A stretch of DNA of 64,000 nucleotides from an uncultured Kineothrix sp. (GTDB lineage Bacteria > Bacillota > Clostridia > Lachnospirales > Lachnospiraceae): assembly GCA_964519385.1 (NCBI GenBank), contig CAZFLR010000007.1:16045-80044 (forward strand), written 5' to 3'. Under the pieces are notes generated by a model. It saw only the letters and a list, made by a program, of their open reading frames with translations, was not told the origin of the DNA and ran no database searches. Position numbers and translations under genes: made by a program. Every line of letters begins with the position of its first letter. Within the stretch, counting starts at the first letter, position 1. This document shows, piece by piece, positions 19,377-30,900 of this stretch.

Positions 19377-19409
19377 AAAAAAGGGTTACCGTACAAACGA
19401 TAACCCCTT
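19377..19409 (-). terminator. Rho-independent terminator after flagellin copy 1
   Basis: Minus strand AAAGGGGTTATCG-tttgta-CGGTAACCCTTTTTT. The stem is imperfect and is followed by a U-run. Confidence 0.6.
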
Positions 19410-19433
19410 TTAAATCCTGCTTTAAGAGTGTGC

Positions 19434-20252
19434 TTAGCCAAGTAATGATAATACACCCTGGTTACTCTGGTTAGCCTGTGCCAACATTGACTGTCCTGCC
19501 TGAGCAAGGATATTGTTGTTGGAGAATCTAACCATTTCAGAAGCCATATCTGTATCACGAATCTGTGATTCAGCAGATGTTGTATTTTCTACAACGTTGT
19601 CAAGGTTCTTAATTGTGTGCTCTAATCTGTTCTGGATTGCACCAAGGTCAGATCTCTGCTGTGAAACAACCTTCAGAGCTGCTTTAATCATTGTGATTGC
19701 TTTCTGTGCATTGACATCTGATGTACCTCCTACGGAAATACCTGTGATACCAATACCTGCTGCACTCATACCTGCGATAGAGAATGAGATAATCTGATTA
19801 GCTTCTGCACCAACCTGAAGACCTTTTTTAGTAAATGTTCCATCAAGAAGATTCTGCTCGTTGAATGTAGTTGTTGAAGCTACACGGTCGATTTCAGATG
19901 TAAGAGCCTGAATCTCTGAGTTGATGTAAGAACGGTCTGCAGATGTCTGTGTACCGTTAGCTGCCTGAACTGCCAGCTCTGTCATACGCTGCAACATGTC
20001 ATGCACTTCTGCAAGTGCACCTTCTGCTGTCTGCACACAAGAGATACCATCCTGTGCATTGGCACTGGCCTGTGTAAGACCTCTAATCTGACGTCTCATC
20101 TTCTCTGAAATAGCAAGACCTGCTGCATCATCTGCTGCACGGTTGATTCTGTAACCTGAAGATAATTTCTCTGTCGATTTTGCCTGTACGTCTGTTGTGA
20201 TACCTAACATTCTGTTTGAGTTCATCGCTGTAAGATTGTGCTGTACTACCAT
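19434..20252 (-). CDS. fliC: Flagellin (short, 272 aa), copy 1
   Basis: MVVQHNLTAMNSNRMLGITT, LSSGYRINRAADDAAGLAISEKMRRQIRGL, and C-terminal ILAQAGQSMLAQANQSNQGVLSLLG. SD AAGGAGG. Confidence 0.95.
   Translation of the reverse strand: MVVQHNLTAMNSNRMLGITTDVQAKSTEKLSSGYRINRAADDAAGLAISEKMRRQIRGLTQASANAQDGISCVQTAEGALAEVHDMLQRMTELAVQAANGTQTSADRSYINSEIQALTSEIDRVASTTTFNEQNLLDGTFTKKGLQVGAEANQIISFSIAGMSAAGIGITGISVGGTSDVNAQKAITMIKAALKVVSQQRSDLGAIQNRLEHTIKNLDNVVENTTSAESQIRDTDMASEMVRFSNNNILAQAGQSMLAQANQSNQGVLSLLG
19529..20174 (-). repeat. Copy 1 of a 646-bp block identical base for base between the two flagellin genes
   Basis: Line-by-line comparison at an offset of 1060 nt: 19529..20174 equals 20589..21234 with no mismatch found. 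Both coding ends and both leaders differ at many positions. Confidence 0.9.
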
Positions 20253-20260
20253 ATTTTTTT

Positions 20261-20289
20261 CCTCCTTGATTTACGGAATTCCTTTCCGT
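20261..20289 (-). promoter_or_regulatory. Candidate CsrA binding sites in the flagellin-1 leader (GGA in a hairpin loop, plus a GGA in the SD)
   Basis: mRNA sense: ACGGAA-AGGAA-UUCCGU (6-bp stem, GGA in the loop) followed by AAAUCAAGGAGGAAAAAAAUAUG. csrA and fliW are encoded in the same window. Confidence 0.55.
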
Positions 20290-20368
20290 TTTCTTTCCAT
20301 TGAATTCTATGTAATAGTTGCTTGCCAGGAATGCCATCCCTGACACCCACTTGACTTACTTGTATTAT

Positions 20369-20395
20369 ATATCGGAGAATTTGAAAATAACTTAA
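20369..20395 (-). promoter_or_regulatory. Sigma-28/SigD-type promoter of flagellin copy 1
   Basis: Minus strand TTAAG-N15-CCGATAT (TTAA-N15-TCCGATAT against TAAA-N15-GCCGATAT), about 115 nt upstream of the ATG. Confidence 0.75.
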
Positions 20396-20427
20396 CACCT
20401 TTTTTTCAATTTTTTCATTTTTTCGGC

Positions 20428-20457
20428 AAAAAAAAGGGAACCGAATATCCGGTTCCC
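20428..20457 (-). terminator. Rho-independent terminator after flagellin copy 2
   Basis: Minus strand GGGAACCGG-atatt-CGGTTCCC followed by TTTTTTTT. Confidence 0.85.
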
Positions 20458-20493
20458 TTTTGGTAGTTCTTACTACGAATCCCGTGCTGACAA

Positions 20494-21312
20494 TTAGCCA
20501 AGGATTGATAATACACCCTGATTTGTCTGGTTAGCCTGTGCCAACATCGCCTGTCCTGCCTGAGCAAGGATATTGTTGTTGGAGAACTTAACCATTTCAG
20601 AAGCCATATCTGTATCACGAATCTGTGATTCAGCAGATGTTGTATTTTCTACAACGTTGTCAAGGTTCTTAATTGTGTGCTCTAATCTGTTCTGGATTGC
20701 ACCAAGGTCAGATCTCTGCTGTGAAACAACCTTCAGAGCTGCTTTAATCATTGTGATTGCTTTCTGTGCATTGACATCTGATGTACCTCCTACGGAAATA
20801 CCTGTGATACCAATACCTGCTGCACTCATACCTGCGATAGAGAATGAGATAATCTGATTAGCTTCTGCACCAACCTGAAGACCTTTTTTAGTAAATGTTC
20901 CATCAAGAAGATTCTGCTCGTTGAATGTAGTTGTTGAAGCTACACGGTCGATTTCAGATGTAAGAGCCTGAATCTCTGAGTTGATGTAAGAACGGTCTGC
21001 AGATGTCTGTGTACCGTTAGCTGCCTGAACTGCCAGCTCTGTCATACGCTGCAACATGTCATGCACTTCTGCAAGTGCACCTTCTGCTGTCTGCACACAA
21101 GAGATACCATCCTGTGCATTGGCACTGGCCTGTGTAAGACCTCTAATCTGACGTCTCATCTTCTCTGAAATAGCAAGACCTGCTGCATCATCTGCTGCAC
21201 GGTTGATTCTGTAACCTGAAGATAATTTCTCTGTTGATTTTGCCTGAACACCTGTTGTAATTCCTAACATTCTGTTAGAGTTCATTGCTGTAAGATTGTG
21301 CTGTACTACCAT
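20494..21312 (-). CDS. fliC: Flagellin (272 aa), copy 2
   Basis: The same protein as copy 1 except for a few residues at both ends (ITTGVQ vs ITTDVQ; MVKFS..GQAML..NQTNQGVLSILG). Start set at the ATG of MVVQHNL, preceded by CAAGGAGGAA. The track's N-terminal extension from 21360 has no support. Confidence 0.95.
   Translation of the reverse strand: MVVQHNLTAMNSNRMLGITTGVQAKSTEKLSSGYRINRAADDAAGLAISEKMRRQIRGLTQASANAQDGISCVQTAEGALAEVHDMLQRMTELAVQAANGTQTSADRSYINSEIQALTSEIDRVASTTTFNEQNLLDGTFTKKGLQVGAEANQIISFSIAGMSAAGIGITGISVGGTSDVNAQKAITMIKAALKVVSQQRSDLGAIQNRLEHTIKNLDNVVENTTSAESQIRDTDMASEMVKFSNNNILAQAGQAMLAQANQTNQGVLSILG
20589..21234 (-). repeat. Copy 2 of the 646-bp identical flagellin core
   Basis: See 19529..20174. 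Confidence 0.9.
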
Positions 21313-21319
21313 ATAATTT

Positions 21320-21352
21320 CCTCCTTGAATTTGCATGTCGTCATCCTTGACG
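21320..21352 (-). promoter_or_regulatory. Candidate CsrA binding sites in the flagellin-2 leader
   Basis: mRNA sense: UCGUC-AAGGAU-GACGA (GGA in a hexaloop) followed by AAAUUCAAGGAGGAAAUUAUAUG. Confidence 0.6.
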
Positions 21353-21439
21353 ATCATCAATCGAAAAAGATTTGTCCCGGCCGTACGCTCCGTTTCATTC
21401 TTTTTCTTAGGTTAATAAGTATTTGTTTACTTGTATTAT

Positions 21440-21466
21440 ATATCGGAGAAACTCCAAAAATATTAA
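21440..21466 (-). promoter_or_regulatory. Sigma-28/SigD-type promoter of flagellin copy 2
   Basis: Minus strand TTAAT-N15-CCGATAT, with the same geometry as the copy-1 promoter. Confidence 0.7.
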
Positions 21467-21500: not shown

Positions 21501-21983
21501 TTATTTTTTATTGTCCAGAAAATGCGCCTGTGTAAAGGAAGCCTGGCTCATACTCTTATAGTAGTCCAGAGCTGCCTTGGAGGAAGTCCGTCCCTTGCGG
21601 ATTTTCTCCCGGCTCTGCCGGAAATACTGTTCGACAAGTGTCTTGTTTCTTGCTTCCTGAGCCTGAATCGATACACTTCTCTCCGTAATCTGCGAAATCA
21701 TTTCCTGCATACGGGAAATATTCTGTGCATATTTCTCTTTCCCGTCCGGAGCCTGAATCTCTTCTTTCACATGCCGGAACAAATCTTCAAAGCCTTCATC
21801 CAGCTTTTCCATTTCTACGATAAGCTCCATCTTCCGGTTTGCATTGTCATCAAAATCCTCCCACTTCATGTTCGGATCATTTAAAATGACTGTCTGCTCA
21901 TTGTTTTTGACTATTATCTCGTCCAAAATCCCAATCTTTTTAGCGAGACTTTCTTCCATAATAGAAAGGTACTGTTTTTCCAT
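21501..21983 (-). CDS. Coiled-coil protein in the position of fliT (putative flagellar export chaperone)
   Basis: 160 aa, helical, charged, located directly downstream of fliS as in the Bacillus flaG-fliD-fliS-fliT operon. The assignment rests on position, not on a motif. Confidence 0.55.
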   Translation of the reverse strand: MEKQYLSIMEESLAKKIGILDEIIVKNNEQTVILNDPNMKWEDFDDNANRKMELIVEMEKLDEGFEDLFRHVKEEIQAPDGKEKYAQNISRMQEMISQITERSVSIQAQEARNKTLVEQYFRQSREKIRKGRTSSKAALDYYKSMSQASFTQAHFLDNKK

Positions 21984-21992
21984 TACATTCTC

Positions 21993-22373
21993 CTATTTCG
22001 CTCTCTTCATGACCTCTTTCCACGTGTCCCTCATAGAATGGAGATGTCCGTTAACTTCTTCCAATATCTCTTTATCCTTTTTAATATTCGCTTCAATCAA
22101 GCGTTCAAGCAGATATTTGTAAACTCTCTCAAAATCCTCTGCCACAGGATATTTCATATCAAGTGTAGCACGAAATTCTTCAATGATACGCTGTACCTTT
22201 TTAATATTGTCATTCGCCTTCTGTATATCCTTCTGCTCAATTCCCATAATTGCAATATTGCAGAATTTAATCGCTCCGTCATAAAGCATAAGTGTAAGCT
22301 CTGCCGGCGAAGCAGTCATTATTTTATTGGTATTATACTGCGCATATTGCGCATATGCATTAGGTAATGCCAT
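21993..22373 (-). CDS. fliS: Flagellin-specific chaperone FliS
   Basis: 126 aa. YNTNKIMTASPAELTLMLYDGAIKF and the four-helix pattern typical of FliS. Confidence 0.9.
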   Translation of the reverse strand: MALPNAYAQYAQYNTNKIMTASPAELTLMLYDGAIKFCNIAIMGIEQKDIQKANDNIKKVQRIIEEFRATLDMKYPVAEDFERVYKYLLERLIEANIKKDKEILEEVNGHLHSMRDTWKEVMKRAK

Positions 22374-24536: not shown

Positions 24537-24752
24537 CTAGAAGAGGTCTTTCAGTGCCTCAAGTCCTGAAACCTGCATTGCCTCTTTATTTGCTTCCTGA
24601 ATCTGAAGATAAACCTCTTTACGGTATACCGGCACTTCCTTCGGAGCTGCTATACCAATCTTTACCTGATCACCCTTTACTTCAAGAATTGTAATCTCTA
24701 CATTGTTATTGATGACGAGTGCTTCGCCTTTTCTTCTTGTCAGTGCCAGCAT
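24537..24752 (-). CDS. csrA: Carbon storage regulator CsrA (flagellar type)
   Basis: MLALTRRKGEALVINNNVEITILEVKGDQVKIGIAAPKEVPVYRKEVY. ATG start at 24752, directly after the fliW stop. Confidence 0.9.
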   Translation of the reverse strand: MLALTRRKGEALVINNNVEITILEVKGDQVKIGIAAPKEVPVYRKEVYLQIQEANKEAMQVSGLEALKDLF

Positions 24753-24753
24753 A

Positions 24754-25206
24754 TTATACACCCGCCTTTCTGTTTTTTAAAATCTCGTAAATCGGAAATT
24801 TTATCTGATATTCTTCACCTTCCGTAATCACCTGGCAGGCTTTTCTGTTATCGGCATTGATTACAATCGGTCCGCGAAGATTTACACTCATCTTTGTCAG
24901 ATCGCTCGGAACAGTCACTGTCACCAGCACAAGCATATTCTCCGGATCCAGTCCGCCGATTGGTTTTAACAGCTCGTCCTCCACCTGAGGATTGTAATCT
25001 TCCAAAATATCAAGCGGATTCATGACAGGAATTGCAAACTGCGGTTCCTGCATGGACTGCAGCCACTGGATGCCTCCGTTCTTTTCATTGTCATGAATCA
25101 GTGTAAATGTTGTCAACTGCGGAAATCCCACGATACCGTTTACGAAATGAATCAGTTTATCGTCCTCTATATCGATTGTCCCAAAGATTCTTGTATTAAC
25201 CTCCAT
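24754..25206 (-). CDS. fliW: Flagellar assembly factor FliW (CsrA antagonist)
   Basis: 150 aa. IHFVNGIVGFPQLTTFTLI, FAIPVMNP, and NLRGPIVINADNRKACQV. Confidence 0.9.
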   Translation of the reverse strand: MEVNTRIFGTIDIEDDKLIHFVNGIVGFPQLTTFTLIHDNEKNGGIQWLQSMQEPQFAIPVMNPLDILEDYNPQVEDELLKPIGGLDPENMLVLVTVTVPSDLTKMSVNLRGPIVINADNRKACQVITEGEEYQIKFPIYEILKNRKAGV

Positions 25207-26814: not shown

Positions 26815-28698
26815 TTAAACACCCGTTTGAAGAATTAATCTGTCATAAACTTCCGTCAGCACCTGTATCATCTGTGAAGCCAGATTATACGCATGCTGGA
26901 ATTGTACCAGATTCAGGGATTCCTCATCGGTATCAACACCGCTGATAGAAAGCCGCTGCGTATCTATTGTCGCTTCAATGTTCTGATAACTTGCATAGAA
27001 AGCATTCGCGCTACTGGCATTCAGGGATACATCCGAAAGAATGCACTGCAGAAAATCTCCTGCATTACATCCGCGGAAGCTCATCACTTCCTTATTGGTG
27101 CGCAAATCGGTCAAATCTTCAATGACATCATACGCTTCCTGTCCCGTTCCTTTTCCTGTATGTGTGGCAAAAAGTCCGGAATCCTCAAGCATTTCTTTGT
27201 TTACGGCAAAGTTTGCAGCCGTGAGATAATAATATGTATCGTCCGTGCTGGCAATCGGTGTTCCTGCAACCTTATTGCGTGAATCCAAAAACTTGCGCTG
27301 TGTCACATCCGTTGCCTCATTCGCCACAAAAAGCACATCTGCTGCGTTTCCGTAAGAGTCCACCGAGCCGTCCTGTGTCAGAATGCGGTTAAAAGCCTCT
27401 GCAAAGGTACGTACCCACTCATTGAGCTGCTCCTGATAATAAGGAATGCCCTGATAATCAATGGCCGCACCGATTGTAACGTCTTTACCTATACGGCTGG
27501 AATTCGGCTGGTAGCTGTTCTTTGCAAGGTCATCACTGATTTCAAAGATGTACTGGCTGATATCCCCGTTTGCATCATAGACTACCTTAAATGTATCGTA
27601 GTAAAACTCCTGATTTCCAATCTGCATTACACCTCCGTCGTCGGAAAGTGTACATTTATTCAAATCCTTCAGATAATCCGCGGTCACATCCACGGTCACC
27701 TCATTCTTGCCCGTCGTCTGATTTTTTTCTATACTTGAAAGCGTTCCTTTAAACTGTTCTGCATTGTTTCCGTCTCTCATGGCAATGAGTCCCTGAAGCT
27801 GTCCGCCGATTAAGGTGCTTGACATATAGAAATCATTTCCGTTTTTCCACTTGATATCAAACAATCCGAGTGCATCTGACTGATTGTTTGCCTCGTATTT
27901 AGCTTTTGCAACGCATTCCAGTTCATAATATTCTCCGGAATCCACAAGCATCTGCCCGCCGGCAATCTGAACCACGTAACGTTTCGCTCCGGTGTCGCGT
28001 CCGTTATTGACATCATATATCGGTGTCTCTGTCACCTCTACATTGGTAACCAGAGACAGCTTGTCAATCAGCAGATCTCTCTGATCCCGAAGCTCATTTG
28101 CCGTTGTTCCTGTCAGTTCAATTACATTAATCTGTTCATTTAAAGAAGCAATCTCACGGGCATAAGAATTGATTTCATCTACCTTATTCTTAATTTCGGC
28201 ATTGATATCAAGCTGCATATTAGAAAGATTCTCTGCCACTGTATTGAAATAATAAGCCAAATTGTTTGCAAATCCGATAAACTGGGATTTTGTGGTTGCA
28301 TCACCTGCATTTTTCTGAACCTCTGCCAATGCACTGTACATTTCATTAAAAATGGTGGTGAAGCCCTTGATTGTCTTGTCATCCGAAAACAAATCTTCTA
28401 TCTGCTGCATATAATACTGCTTTTCTTCGTACTCGCCGACTTTATTGTTATTATTCCAATATTTAAAATCATAGAAGGCATCACGGTTACGATCTATGGA
28501 AATCGTGTCAACACCGGAACCAGCACACCCGTAAGTAGTATATGTCCGGAGTGCATCGCTTGCCTTCTGTGTGACCGTCTGTCTGGAATATCCCTTAGTC
28601 TCAACATTCGCAATGTTGTTACCTGTCGTATTGAGTGCGGCGTTCGCCGCCGTCAGTCCGGTATATGCAATATTTAAACCAAAAAATGTGGAAGCCAT
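26815..28698 (-). CDS. flgK: Hook-associated protein 1, FlgK (paralog 1)
   Basis: 627 aa. FFGLNIAYTGLTAANAALNTTGNNIANVETKGYSRQ and C-terminal LVQFQHAYNLASQMIQV. Confidence 0.9.
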   Translation of the reverse strand: MASTFFGLNIAYTGLTAANAALNTTGNNIANVETKGYSRQTVTQKASDALRTYTTYGCAGSGVDTISIDRNRDAFYDFKYWNNNNKVGEYEEKQYYMQQIEDLFSDDKTIKGFTTIFNEMYSALAEVQKNAGDATTKSQFIGFANNLAYYFNTVAENLSNMQLDINAEIKNKVDEINSYAREIASLNEQINVIELTGTTANELRDQRDLLIDKLSLVTNVEVTETPIYDVNNGRDTGAKRYVVQIAGGQMLVDSGEYYELECVAKAKYEANNQSDALGLFDIKWKNGNDFYMSSTLIGGQLQGLIAMRDGNNAEQFKGTLSSIEKNQTTGKNEVTVDVTADYLKDLNKCTLSDDGGVMQIGNQEFYYDTFKVVYDANGDISQYIFEISDDLAKNSYQPNSSRIGKDVTIGAAIDYQGIPYYQEQLNEWVRTFAEAFNRILTQDGSVDSYGNAADVLFVANEATDVTQRKFLDSRNKVAGTPIASTDDTYYYLTAANFAVNKEMLEDSGLFATHTGKGTGQEAYDVIEDLTDLRTNKEVMSFRGCNAGDFLQCILSDVSLNASSANAFYASYQNIEATIDTQRLSISGVDTDEESLNLVQFQHAYNLASQMIQVLTEVYDRLILQTGV

Positions 28699-28713: not shown

Positions 28714-30366
28714 TTACGCTCCGAGCGTGTTTAAAATATGCTCAAGCATTTCGTCAATCACATTAATATAACGGCTGGATGCATTATAAGCATTCTGGAA
28801 TTTAATCATGTTGTTCAATTCTTCATCATCGGACACTCCGACAATCTGCTGGCGTGCATACTCCGTTGAATCCACCGTTGCCTGTTCGTTTGAATATATA
28901 CTGTAAAAAACAGCCCCCGTATTTGCTACCTGACTCACAATGTTAGAATAGTAGTCAACCAGATTGGTCTTTGTAGTCACATTCGGATTTAATGTATATT
29001 CTGCCGTCTCAAAAACAAGCTGAAGATTCTGCGCCGTCTCATAATCTTCCTTTGCATCCATTTTTATAAATCCAAGCTTTGTCGGCTCTTTTACAAGATC
29101 GGGATTTACCACCAGATTTGAGATGGTAAACAGGGTATTCTCGCGCCCCTGTGTGTAATCTTCACGAATCAGGTTTCCGGCTGCATCATATTCATCCGAT
29201 CCGATTCGTTCAAAGAGCTGCATGATTGAGCCGTCTTCATTGCGAAGGTATGTACCGCCCTCCTTGACTGCTGCGTTCTCAAGAACCTTGTTCATCTCGG
29301 TCACAATATTGTGAATGAGATTATCAAACTCAGCCATGACATTCATAAGAATGGAGGAAGCTACATCTTCGTTATACTTTTGTGCATCCTTAAGGTCCGT
29401 ATAGTCAGCTCTGTGTGTTCCTCTCGCAAGCATCATACCCTTTAAACTTCCGATATCCGTATTGGCCTCCGTCGAAATCACACGTGACATATCATAAACC
29501 TTGCAATTATCGATAAGATACTTGAAGGTTCCGTCCTGTTGCTGCACCTTCTTGGCATCTGTCAGCCAGAACGGTGTGTAAAAGCCTGTCTCCGGATCGG
29601 TATCCATTCCGATTTTAAAAGTCATTGCACGGTTCACCAGAACATGCCCTTCAAACTTAACCGAAACGCCGCCTTCCTGATCCTCCGTATAGTCAATATT
29701 TCCAAGCTTACCGAGTTCATCAAGGAGCTTGTTTCGCTCATCACGAAGGTCGTTGGCTCTCTCGATACCTCCGGCTTCAATGCGGATAATGTCATTGTTA
29801 AGTGCAAACAGGCGGTCTGCATAATTGTTAATCTTATCCACTTCGCCCTTAATCTGTACATTCAGATTATCCTGATAATTGCAGAGGGCATCATACACAT
29901 TGGATGCCTGCTCCACAAACTGGCTTGATCTCTGAATCAGCAATCCCTGTGTCACGGAGCTCGCCGGTTGCTTTGCAAGTTCCTGTACAGCTTCCCAGAG
30001 ATTGTTCAATGAATTACTAAAAGACTCTCCTTCTAATTCACCAAGAAGAGTCTCTATTTCACTCAACGTATTGTATGATACTTCATAAAAAGCACTGCGG
30101 CCGGACTCTCTCCTATAGGTCTGATCCAGAAAATAATCTCTCACCTGTCTTACATCCGCATAAGTAACTCCGAGACCAATCTGCTGATTTGCAACTGCTT
30201 TCGGATTCACCGATAAAGTATTATACTGTCTATCATTCAATAAAGTCTGCTGTCTGGTGTAACCTACGGTATCTGCATTGGATAAGTTGTGGGCAACTGT
30301 ATTCAATGCATTTTGTCCCGTCTGCAAACCGGACGCGCCGACATATAAACTTCCAAATAATGACAT
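28714..30366 (-). CDS. flgK: FlgK-family hook-associated protein (paralog 2)
   Basis: 550 aa. LFGSLYVGASGLQTGQNALNTVAHNLSNADTVGYTRQ and C-terminal MIKFQNAYNASSRYINV. Both conserved termini are intact. Confidence 0.85.
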   Translation of the reverse strand: MSLFGSLYVGASGLQTGQNALNTVAHNLSNADTVGYTRQQTLLNDRQYNTLSVNPKAVANQQIGLGVTYADVRQVRDYFLDQTYRRESGRSAFYEVSYNTLSEIETLLGELEGESFSNSLNNLWEAVQELAKQPASSVTQGLLIQRSSQFVEQASNVYDALCNYQDNLNVQIKGEVDKINNYADRLFALNNDIIRIEAGGIERANDLRDERNKLLDELGKLGNIDYTEDQEGGVSVKFEGHVLVNRAMTFKIGMDTDPETGFYTPFWLTDAKKVQQQDGTFKYLIDNCKVYDMSRVISTEANTDIGSLKGMMLARGTHRADYTDLKDAQKYNEDVASSILMNVMAEFDNLIHNIVTEMNKVLENAAVKEGGTYLRNEDGSIMQLFERIGSDEYDAAGNLIREDYTQGRENTLFTISNLVVNPDLVKEPTKLGFIKMDAKEDYETAQNLQLVFETAEYTLNPNVTTKTNLVDYYSNIVSQVANTGAVFYSIYSNEQATVDSTEYARQQIVGVSDDEELNNMIKFQNAYNASSRYINVIDEMLEHILNTLGA

Positions 30367-30381
30367 GTCATCACCTCATAA

Positions 30382-30900
30382 CTATTGTTTGGCATCAAAT
30401 CTTCCGGATGAAACACCCATCAGATTCCCGGCATTGACGGCACCTCTGTTATACTCCGCAGTTTCCGGAGCCGCCTTTAAGCCCCGAACGATATTTAAGT
30501 CAAATTCCACAAGTTCCAACGCGCTCTCCAGCAATTCTTTGTTTTGTGCATTGATTCTGATCATATTCTGCGTCGTCTCATGAAGTGCATCCTTCACCGC
30601 TGTCAGTCGCCTCTGCTCTGCAGGTCTTCCCGCAAGCATTTCAACGAGTCTGCCAAGCTTTAATGTATTCACATCCATGTTCATTACATTGGCAATATCC
30701 TGCATCGCAACCTCTCTTTGTCTGTCGAGTGCGTTGATGCAATCCACCTGTTTCTGCTCCTCCTCCGTGATGGCAGATAACTGCGCAATATCATTTGAAA
30801 CTATAATGCGTGTCTTTTTCATGGATAAATCCAACAGCACTTTGTACTCTCTATTCTCTTGTTCCAGAATATCCATCAGATTTTCCATTAAACTTGCCAC
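30382..30900 (-). CDS. flgN: FlgN-family flagellar chaperone
   Basis: 172 aa helical protein (LMDILEQENREYKVLLDLS) located between flgM and flgK, as in Bacillus. Confidence 0.7.
   Translation of the reverse strand: MASLMENLMDILEQENREYKVLLDLSMKKTRIIVSNDIAQLSAITEEEQKQVDCINALDRQREVAMQDIANVMNMDVNTLKLGRLVEMLAGRPAEQRRLTAVKDALHETTQNMIRINAQNKELLESALELVEFDLNIVRGLKAAPETAEYNRGAVNAGNLMGVSSGRFDAKQ

Follow-up and report, generated by a model that had tools for sequence, protein, structure and literature searches.

Concerted evolution of a tandem flagellin gene pair with diverged ends and leaders in an uncultured gut Lachnospiraceae bacterium

In an uncultured gut bacterium of the Lachnospiraceae, two tandem flagellin genes evolve in concert in their core, whereas their tails and leaders follow the position of each copy in the pair, and comparison with related genomes indicates that the pair is an ancient tandem duplicate, not a fresh one. 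This is real but ordinary concerted evolution, of the kind already known from Campylobacter flaA/flaB, and represents no new kind of system. As its cause we favour a recent gene conversion of the RecA type (or unequal crossover in an equivalent cycle) that operates within the old pair and is limited at the gene edges; we put the probability of this reading at about 0.75. The locus thereby documents that tandem flagellin genes continue to evolve in concert in gut and rumen members of the Lachnospiraceae, whose flagellins are major microbiota antigens recognised by the immune system. All positions refer to the window, the whole stretch of 64,000 nt of DNA that was analysed.

The gene pair and its identical core

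Both genes lie on the minus strand and possess a CDS of 819 nt each; they are adjacent direct repeats with a period of 1060 nt and 241 nt between them.

20494–21312, minus strand: upstream flagellin gene (up), an open reading frame for 272 aa that adjoins the flgN-like, fliS and fliD genes; tail residues K242/A255/T263/I270 in the alignment
19434–20252, minus strand: downstream flagellin gene (dn), an open reading frame for 272 aa with Pfam matches that adjoins a DUF3880/GT-like gene; tail residues R242/S255/S263/L270
20589–21234, minus strand: identical 646-nt core of up (CDS nt 79–724), the longest identical run
19529–20174, minus strand: identical 646-nt core of dn (CDS nt 79–724), a likely conversion tract with a weakly indicated role as recipient
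20175–20252, minus strand: putatively unconverted 5' margin of dn (counterpart in up, 21235–21312), with 8 differences at CDS nt 27–78, one of them non-synonymous (D/G21)
19434–19528, minus strand: putatively unconverted 3' margin of dn (counterpart in up, 20494–20588), with 9 differences; codes for the C-terminal D0 helix

The dn protein matches the Pfam families Flagellin_N (PF00669, 2e-44, residues 3–141) and Flagellin_C (PF00700, 7e-28, residues 186–271), so that both the N- and the C-terminal D0/D1 regions are present, and up is near-identical to it. Its best match in the PDB, 9hpz_A, is a 270-aa filament flagellin with a solved structure, aligned over the full length (E 1e-103).

A reading of the letters of this DNA alone (the sequence-only reading) had reported a central 646 bp identical base for base, flanked by ends of ~78 and ~95 nt that differ mostly synonymously and in a few residues. 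Our comparison of the two CDSs recovered exactly the same run at the same coordinates, and 17 base differences in total: eight in the first 78 nt, none in the core, and nine in the last 95 nt (CDS nt 725, 726, 763, 765, 788, 789, 792, 808 and 810). Five residues change (G/D21, K/R242, A/S255, T/S263 and I/L270) and the remaining base changes are synonymous; in the tail, four of the five changed codons are non-synonymous. The confinement of all 17 differences to 173 end positions is not due to chance, since its probability is 3e-12 under uniform placement and 1e-13 when the differences are drawn from sites variable among relatives, and the 646-nt run is likewise longer than expected by chance given 17 differences outside it. 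The 5' and 3' margins show synonymous divergences of 0.41 and 0.195, respectively, and the core, with 152.7 synonymous sites, one of 0; pN/pS is 0.35 in the tail vs 0.04 in the 5' margin.

The base-for-base identity of the core as assembled could partly reflect short-read smoothing. A short-read or metagenome assembler may have popped the bubbles between two similar cores and so reduced them to one graph edge, or a gap-filler may have copied one core into the other, the edge then being threaded twice, so that only the ends stayed separate because their close-set differences link them to unique flanks. Such a process is conceivable in a draft genome of 78 contigs and 94% completeness whose relatives are MAGs: the margin differences lie no more than 37 nt apart and would form separate k-mer paths, lone core SNPs would form poppable bubbles, and a short-read graph would hold both cores as a single edge traversed twice, with sparse real differences smoothed off. 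Moreover, a close relative's contig (L047) carries a single hybrid gene with up leader and dn tail at 2.8x coverage, which resembles a collapse, and the contigs of many relatives end within flagellin genes, while that of G003 begins inside a 119-nt identical run. However, cores as diverged as those of the sister species (52–85 of 646 nt) or as the margins (~10%) could not have merged, and the genome holds no alternative core contig. The assembly could therefore conceal a few scattered core differences at most, and the core does differ from the margins in divergence. That two copies exist follows from the intergenic region, which has a promoter, a leader and a terminator of its own and is orthologous to its counterpart in relatives. 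We consequently regard an assembly artefact as unlikely, albeit the least unlikely of the alternatives that we weighed. Metagenome assemblies fragment or collapse tandem pairs of this kind, which makes the copy numbers and sequences of flagellins in MAG catalogues unreliable at such loci. The near-identical pairs found in relatives all derive from MAGs; the tandem pairs of five isolate genomes differ at 39–167 sites, and seven further pairs from metagenome contigs are all diverged. One or three copies may also occur in relatives (L047, L054).

Age of the duplication and homogenisation of the core

The same tandem pair occurs in three genomes of the genus (G001, G002 and G008), in which the copies differ at 68–102 sites distributed over the whole gene and densest in its centre. 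Leaders are 83–87% identical between species for up and 59–78% for dn, vs ~50% between up and dn, and flanks and tails are likewise orthologous by position, the pattern of a duplication older than the species split. A tree of the last 95 nt separates up from dn copies by one branch (support 83/76; recovered in 86% of the bootstrap trees); it was computed within the genus, after a version with the pairs L052 and L053 from outside it, in which one sequence is a codon shorter, was left unresolved. K242 in up vs R242 in dn holds in all seven up and in all dn copies seen, and the pairs of two other species (L048 and L049) differ at the same nine tail sites as that of the window. These position-specific leaders and tails indicate a duplication older than the genus.

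Had a single flagellin gene been duplicated in tandem only lately and had its ends diverged since then, the presence of two adjacent, nearly identical genes would be accounted for. We reject this scenario as virtually impossible, because leaders and intergenic regions are unrelated between the copies, while each is orthologous to the leader at the same position in three other species, because the tail differences are common to other species site for site, and because a synonymous divergence of 0.2–0.4 in the margins vs 0 in the core cannot follow from one duplication.

In the core, paralogs within a species differ at 52–85 sites (8–13% divergence in sister species) vs 71–127 between orthologs; the copies within a genome are thus closer to each other than to their orthologs in other species. 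A core tree pairs the paralogs by species with a support of 95–100 (G001, G008, L052 and L053), which signifies concerted evolution; in this tree, the two copies from the window's genome (G000) enter as identical rows, and for G002 the pairing is not resolved. A fixed difference between up and dn in the three other species exists at nt 725/726 alone and at none of the core sites, and the boundary at codon 242 is sharp in G002 and G008 as well, with 3% divergence before and 14–17% after it. The positional leaders and tails, the sister copies that are diverged along the entire gene, and the species-wise core tree hence support the proposal of the sequence-only reading that conversion was recent and affected only the middle of the genes.

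At discriminating core sites, the window's genome matches the up copy of G002 at 29 and its dn copy at 11, which weakly indicates that up was probably the donor and dn the recipient; the call rests on one sister species, whose own pair undergoes conversion. For strains of the same species, we found no exact match to the protein, exact 25-mer scans of metagenome and genome collections were without match, and a protein-guided metagenome scan for DNA of this species reached an identity of 82% at best. The closest proteins (95% aa identity) are encoded on contigs that are only 82–91% identical in DNA and consequently belong to other species.

Proposed edge-limited recombination and the fate of the gene ends

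We propose that the direct repeats recombine homologously (RecA-type) and that the interior of one gene is thereby copied onto the other from time to time, either through intrachromosomal or sister-chromosome gene conversion or through an equivalent cycle of unequal crossover. The latest event in the window's lineage would have replaced at most CDS nt 79–724, with up as the probable donor, and would be recent enough that no core difference has arisen since. Homology between the copies extends only from ~17–20 nt before the ATG through the stop codon. A conversion tract should need matched sequence past both of its ends; with too short a stretch of homology on their far side, the outer ~80–95 nt would seldom be included. 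The margins would in this way retain old copy-specific substitutions, and their mismatches would make exchange there rarer still, thereby stabilising a boundary that is marked by codon 242 throughout the genus. The homology does not include the promoters, leaders and terminators, which evolve independently, and the two products have identical D1 and surface parts and five conservative residue differences in D0. If so, the locus provides a clean natural case of a conversion tract bounded ~80–95 nt inside the limits of homology.

Other recently homogenised Lachnospiraceae pairs retain their leftover differences at the extreme ends as well, and these are mostly synonymous: one pair (L091) differs at ten sites, at nt 10–12 and 750–804, another (L093) at five, all beyond nt 725, and a third (L090) at three, within the last 12 nt. 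In each of them, homology stops 20–40 nt beyond the CDS.

According to the sequence-only reading, termini and regulatory regions are 'kept distinct'. Their distinctness is confirmed; the selection implied by this wording is not, since a mechanical edge effect fits the data at least as well. Under selection, two functional D0 C-termini (K/A/T/I vs R/S/S/L), and maybe the N-termini and leaders too, would be maintained because the tails differ in FliS binding, export order, filament placement or host TLR5 signalling, and homogenised convertants would be removed. In five or more species-level lineages, copy-specific residues have indeed been kept during repeated homogenisation of the core; the high share of non-synonymous tail codons, the conservation of the four tail replacements in several species at a pN/pS well above that of the 5' margin, and the recurrence of the sharp codon 242 boundary in G002 and G008 point in the same direction, and a crude MK-type table for a subset leans to more fixed replacements than expected (p = 0.07). 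Yet all five residue changes are conservative, the MK-type test over the whole genus, with its crude site classification, gives p = 1, and the up tail of G001 is partly of the dn type. In other genera, some pairs encode identical proteins (L054, L120, L090 and L093) and others have their tail differences elsewhere (L052 and L053), so that two tails are not needed across the family. The 5' margin, in which nearly all changes are synonymous, escapes conversion equally, which speaks for position in the gene rather than for protein function. It was the end-located synonymous leftovers, the identical-protein pairs elsewhere and the non-significant MK-type test against which the 'kept distinct' wording was weighed. 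We consider selection improbable, somewhat more so than an assembly artefact.

A specific form of this idea, which we rate a little lower still, holds that two ancient versions of the D0 helix (K242/A255/T263/I270 and R242/S255/S263/L270) are selected on otherwise homogenised subunits and are discriminated by FliS, the export gate or the TLR5 site in D0. Were this true, conversion would be free to renew the middle part, glycosylated or antigenic, in the two genes together and be barred from the tails, and the pair would constitute a modular flagellin system with a shared, jointly variable surface and copy-specific secretion or signalling ends. The termini had also been said to hold the D0 export signal and a C-terminus that binds both FliS and FliW. 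The C-terminal D0 helix expected to bind FliS does differ between the copies; the FliW site is probably misplaced in this claim. The residue that we align as the likely equivalent of the FliW-binding Asn of Bacillus subtilis falls into the identical core.

Leaders, putative regulation and known systems

The elements that surround the two genes, and the candidate regulatory genes nearby, are as follows.

21440–21466, minus strand: sigma-28 (SigD/FliA)-type promoter of up, TTAAT-N15-CCGATAT
20369–20395, minus strand: sigma-28-type promoter of dn, TTAAG-N15-CCGATAT
21338–21353, minus strand: hairpin of the up leader, TCGTCA-AGGA-TGACGA, with GGA in the loop (MFE fold); putative CsrA site 1
20273–20289, minus strand: hairpin of the dn leader, ACGGAA-AGGAA-TTCCGT, with GGA in the loop (MFE fold); putative CsrA site 1
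21317–21327, minus strand: SD region of up, CAAGGAGGAAA (counterpart in dn, 20258–20268); putative CsrA site 2
20428–20461, minus strand: intrinsic terminator after up, a 13-pair stem with a U run behind it (z -3.3)
19377–19411, minus strand: intrinsic terminator after dn (z -3.9; 0 of 200 shuffles as stable)
24537–24761, minus strand: csrA, 74 aa (Pfam CsrA, E 1.7e-25)
24754–25206, minus strand: fliW (Pfam FliW, E 3e-40)
21993–22373, minus strand: fliS, encoding the chaperone whose expected target is the C-terminal D0 helix of flagellin (Pfam FliS, E 1.6e-42)

The promoter motif upstream of both genes is that of sigma-28-dependent late flagellar genes, for which TAAA-N15-CCGATAT is quoted as the consensus (PMC3720852), and its elements are invariant in four species. 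GGA hairpins are recognised by CsrA (PMC13443453). The up hairpin is kept in 5/6 up leaders, in G002 with two compensatory pairs, and 6/7 dn leaders present GGA in a hairpin loop; the up and dn hairpins are unrelated to each other in sequence. Both genes possess the SD sequence AAGGAGG, and on the 5' side the copies cease to be homologous at the SD region. Beyond the sigma-28-type promoter, a hairpin with GGA in its loop but with a different sequence, and ~17 nt around the SD, the two leaders have nothing in common; this agrees with the earlier description of 5' UTRs unrelated save for promoter, CsrA hairpin and SD. An Rfam scan of the locus returned only a sub-threshold chance match (SraG, E 0.73).

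Judged by these motifs, the two genes are presumably transcribed separately from sigma-28-driven promoters and controlled by CsrA/FliW. In B. subtilis, hag reportedly is subject to a Hag–FliW–CsrA partner switch (Yakhnin 2007; Mukherjee 2011). The parts of such a regulon are present here: csrA and fliW are found with late flagellar genes, and both leaders combine a GGA hairpin loop with a GGA overlapping the SD. As with hag, the promoter is of the sigma-D type, fliW-csrA adjoin the late flagellar genes, and fliS is present. Unlike B. subtilis with its one flagellin gene, the window holds two, with leaders that are unrelated in sequence and follow the same design, so far as this putative regulation can be read from the DNA.

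The closest precedent is Campylobacter, where FlaA and FlaB are 95% identical, differ mainly in their termini, and are subject to documented intragenomic recombination (PMC5126078; concerted evolution and recombination of flaA-flaB in C. jejuni/coli: Wassenaar 1995; Harrington 1997; Meinersmann & Hiett 2000, as cited therein). Both systems consist of head-to-tail genes with a promoter each, whose products are ~95% or more identical and differ mainly in the terminal regions; in both, paralogs are closer within a strain than orthologs are between strains, and a flagellin glycosylation island lies nearby. The view that the window reverses the usual flagellin layout of conserved termini and a variable centre consequently cannot be upheld: Campylobacter FlaA/FlaB already differ mainly terminally (PMC5126078), and between species the window's flagellin keeps the usual variable centre. 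In contrast to Campylobacter with its sigma-28 and sigma-54 promoters, both genes of the window have sigma-28-type promoters and CsrA-type leaders, and their flagellin is of the minimal 272-aa D0-D1 type; recombination is documented there and inferred from comparison here.

The gene fla of Alteromonadales is listed among long-lasting, concertedly evolving prokaryotic genes (PMC6053082). As in tufA/tufB and similar paralogs (PMC6053082), recurrent conversion would keep the coding sequences of old duplicates near-identical while their flanks diverge. Unlike tufA/tufB, the copies in the window are adjacent and direct, 241 nt apart, and unequal crossover with a change in copy number is therefore also possible.

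Within the Lachnospiraceae, the flagellar loci of Roseburia and Eubacterium rectale (Neville et al. 2013, PMC3720852) are described with neither tandem near-identical fliC pairs nor conversion, and the word 'tandem' is absent from that account. The window resembles these loci in the gene order flgM...csrA / flaG-fliD-fliS-flgN-fliC, in fliC with predicted sigma-28 promoters, and in two consecutive flgK genes.

The tandem genes and the distribution of their differences

The two flagellin genes, referred to here as up (upstream) and dn (downstream), are repeated with a period of 1060 nt:

19434-20252, minus strand: flagellin dn, 819-nt ORF
20494-21312, minus strand: flagellin up, 819-nt ORF

Both products are complete minimal flagellins with Pfam Flagellin_N and Flagellin_C domains, and they match the solved filament flagellin 9hpz_A (270 aa) over their full length (E 1e-103). 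The mechanical up ORF (20494-21360, minus strand) begins at a TTG 16 codons further upstream and spans the putative CsrA hairpin and the SD; the true start is likely the ATG at 21312, which has AAGGAGG in front of it. JGI homologues annotated at 287 aa probably carry the same wrong start.

Our base-by-base comparison of the 819-nt CDSs found 17 differences, eight at CDS nt 27-78 and nine at nt 725-810, and reproduced, for the assembled sequence, the identical run of 646 nt (19529-20174 = 20589-21234) reported by the sequence-only reading; no longer run without a difference exists. Five codons change the residue (G/D21 and, in the order up/dn, K/R242, A/S255, T/S263, I/L270). The chance that all 17 differences miss this core is 3e-12 under uniform placement, and 1e-13 when differences are drawn from sites variable among relatives. 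Proportional synonymous divergence (pS) is 0.41 in the 5' margin (the first 78 CDS nt), 0.195 in the 3' margin (the last 95 CDS nt, or tail) and 0 over the 152.7 synonymous sites of the assembled core. Since zero events were seen there, core pS lies below about 0.02 at 95%, a bound by which the core would be at least 10 times younger than the margins. Homology between the copies begins about 17-20 nt 5' of the ATG and stops at the stop codon. The residue that probably corresponds to N255 of B. subtilis Hag, needed for FliW binding, falls in the identical core, so residue 21 and the FliS-binding C-terminal D0 helix would be the only places where the copies differ.

An old pair with a core that was probably homogenized recently

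The tandem pair is also present in three same-genus genomes (G001, G002 and G008). In this set of four species, between-species identity is 83-87% for up leaders and 59-78% for dn leaders, whereas up and dn leaders share about 50% identity, the background level. The leaders are orthologous by position, and the duplication is therefore older than the genus, which rules out a fresh duplication. The copies mismatch at 68 aligned sites in G002, 99 in G001 and 102 in G008 (the latter two have 9 gap columns each besides), and these differences run along the whole gene, with the centre densest. Consequently, the identical core in the window reflects a lineage-specific, recent event.

Core distances amount to 52-85 sites for within-species paralogs and 71-127 for between-species orthologs. 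The core ML tree pairs both copies within G001, G008 and the related loci L052 and L053 (support 95-100); the copies of G000, the window's own genome, entered it as identical rows, and the G002 pair was left unresolved. No core position separates up from dn consistently in the three other species; in the whole gene only nt 725/726, in codon 242, do so. Of the core sites that tell the two G002 copies apart, G000 agrees with up at 29 and with dn at 11, which weakly points to up as the donor of the conversion.

The ends group by position. In the within-genus tree of the last 95 nt, up and dn tails part on one branch (support 83/76), a split found in 86% of bootstrap trees and equalled by 0-2 of 500 label shuffles. 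Residue 242 is K in every up copy seen and R in every dn copy seen, and the pairs L048 and L049, from other species-level lineages, differ in the tail at exactly the nine sites of the window. Divergence between the G002 and G008 copies rises from about 3-4% at nt 601-724 to 14-17% at nt 725-819. The 5' margin gives a weaker positional signal than the tail, with a copy-specific site at nt 36 and three changes private to the window's dn copy.

These comparative data (an old pair, core paralogs grouping by species as in concerted evolution, ends by position) support the gene conversion in the middle that the sequence-only reading had proposed; its further suggestion that the ends are kept distinct is explained better by an edge effect. 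Homologous recombination between the tandem repeats, either as gene conversion or as an unequal-crossover cycle, is the reading with the most support. A conversion tract would need matched sequence on both flanks. With none available beyond the SD on one side and the stop codon on the other, conversion would seldom reach the outer 80-95 nt. The margins would then gather copy-specific changes, lowering exchange in them further. The underlying MEPS concept has been reviewed (PMC3924818); we infer its application to this locus. Selection maintaining two tail types is a possible addition to these mechanics, but it is not supported: the residue changes are conservative, identical proteins are encoded in other genera, the tail of the G001 up copy is partly dn-type, and conversion spares the 5' margin just as much, although nearly all changes there are synonymous. 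An MK-type test, with a crude classification, was not significant (p = 1 for the genus, 0.07 for a subset).

In a close relative, a single flagellin gene lies between flgN-like and DUF3880 genes at L047:3039-3857 (ERZ25021399 NODE_16475, 2.8x coverage). It is a hybrid whose leader is of the up type and whose tail is of the dn type (R/S/S/L); two copies are present on L046, a sister-sample contig 98.8% identical to it. L047 has either lost a copy naturally by unequal crossover or been collapsed during metagenome assembly; relatives may display one-copy hybrid (L047) and three-copy (L054) states.

Assembly and comparable flagellin pairs

A graph assembly would walk the core twice as one edge and could thereby have smoothed away a few sparse true differences. 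Margin differences, at most 37 nt apart, remain linked to unique flanks. In addition to the possible collapse at L047, contigs of relatives start or end within flagellin genes (G003:C8, G004:C14, G006:C31, G007:C75, G013:C29 and C32), the G003 contig start falling in a 119-nt run identical to the adjacent copy. Assemblies in this group thus seem to break as a matter of routine at near-identical flagellin repeats. However, a core diverged like that of sister species (8-13%) or like the margins (about 10%) could not merge, and the G000 assembly, a draft of 2.16 Mb in 78 contigs (94% complete), holds no alternative core contig. Hence, the qualitative contrast between a highly similar core and much less similar ends is robust, and exact identity holds for the assembled sequence. 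Same-species DNA was looked for in searchable collections and not found.

Tandem pairs occur in 24 of the best 80 species-representative loci (26 adjacent comparisons). Most are diverged, with 39-206 differences; five are near-identical:

L054 (CAYQZB010000004.1, L054:2501-5398): three tandem flagellin CDSs, 100% identical over 819 nt, unrelated leaders between
L120: two CDSs, 100% identical over 837 nt
L090: 3 differences, in the last 12 nt
L093: 5 differences, every one past nt 725
L091: 10 differences, at nt 10-12 and 750-804

None of the five has related leaders, and in each the homology extends just 20-40 nt beyond the CDS. Most of the differences that remain are synonymous. The full identity of L054 and L120 may reflect whole-CDS conversion or a MAG assembly artefact. 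The closest known system is flaA/flaB of Campylobacter: FlaA and FlaB of C. jejuni are 95% identical with most differences in the terminal regions, intragenomic recombination is documented (PMC5126078), and a list of prokaryotic genes with long-lasting concerted evolution includes fla (PMC6053082). The window pair is a new example of this known phenomenon, and unlike flaA/flaB it has two sigma-28/CsrA-type control regions.

Control regions and genomic setting

Each gene has its own promoter, leader of about 100 nt, hairpin, SD region (CAAGGAGGAAA in both) and terminator:

21440-21466, minus strand: sigma-28-type promoter of up, TTAAT-N15-CCGATAT
20369-20395, minus strand: sigma-28-type promoter of dn, TTAAG-N15-CCGATAT
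21338-21353, minus strand: GGA-loop hairpin in the up leader, 6-bp stem, AGGA in the loop
20273-20289, minus strand: GGA-loop hairpin in the dn leader, 6-bp stem, AGGAA in the loop
20428-20461, minus strand: intrinsic terminator after up
19377-19411, minus strand: intrinsic terminator after dn

The stems of the two hairpins are unrelated in sequence. The up hairpin is kept in five of six up leaders, G002 having two compensatory pair changes, and the loop GGA in six of seven dn leaders. In their layout, and with csrA and fliW close by, the two leaders follow the design of B. subtilis hag. GGA hairpin loops are recognized by CsrA (PMC13443453), and both promoters match the Lachnospiraceae fliC consensus TAAA-N15-CCGATAT (PMC3720852).

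Upstream neighbours, in gene direction, are two flgK genes, flgL, fliW, csrA, flaG, fliD, fliS and a flgN-like gene; downstream of dn follow a DUF3880/GT-like gene and a glycosyltransferase island.

26815-28698 and 28714-30366, minus strand: consecutive, diverged flgK paralogs (627 and 550 aa), Pfam FlgK_D1 in both
21501-21983 and 30382-30900, minus strand: two FlgN-family genes, Pfam FlgN

Consecutive flgK genes occur in five of six Roseburia/Eubacterium genomes (Neville et al. 2013, PMC3720852). The FlgN match is clear for the gene adjoining flgK (75 bits) and weak, below threshold, for that adjoining the flagellin pair (23 bits vs a cutoff of 30.5). The named relatives of G000 are uncultured Lachnospiraceae MAGs from animal and human guts and, farther away, Butyrivibrio, Waltera, Kineothrix and Roseburia. 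A third, diverged flagellin gene of G000 (C3:95654-96772, outside the window; L003/L004) has a 382-codon open frame and is about 42% identical to the tandem pair. If csrA starts at the GTG at 24761, as called mechanically, its first 8 nt (24754-24761) are shared with the 3' end of fliW, an arrangement compatible with translational coupling; the csrA Pfam match begins at residue 4, and the real start may be an ATG a few codons further in.
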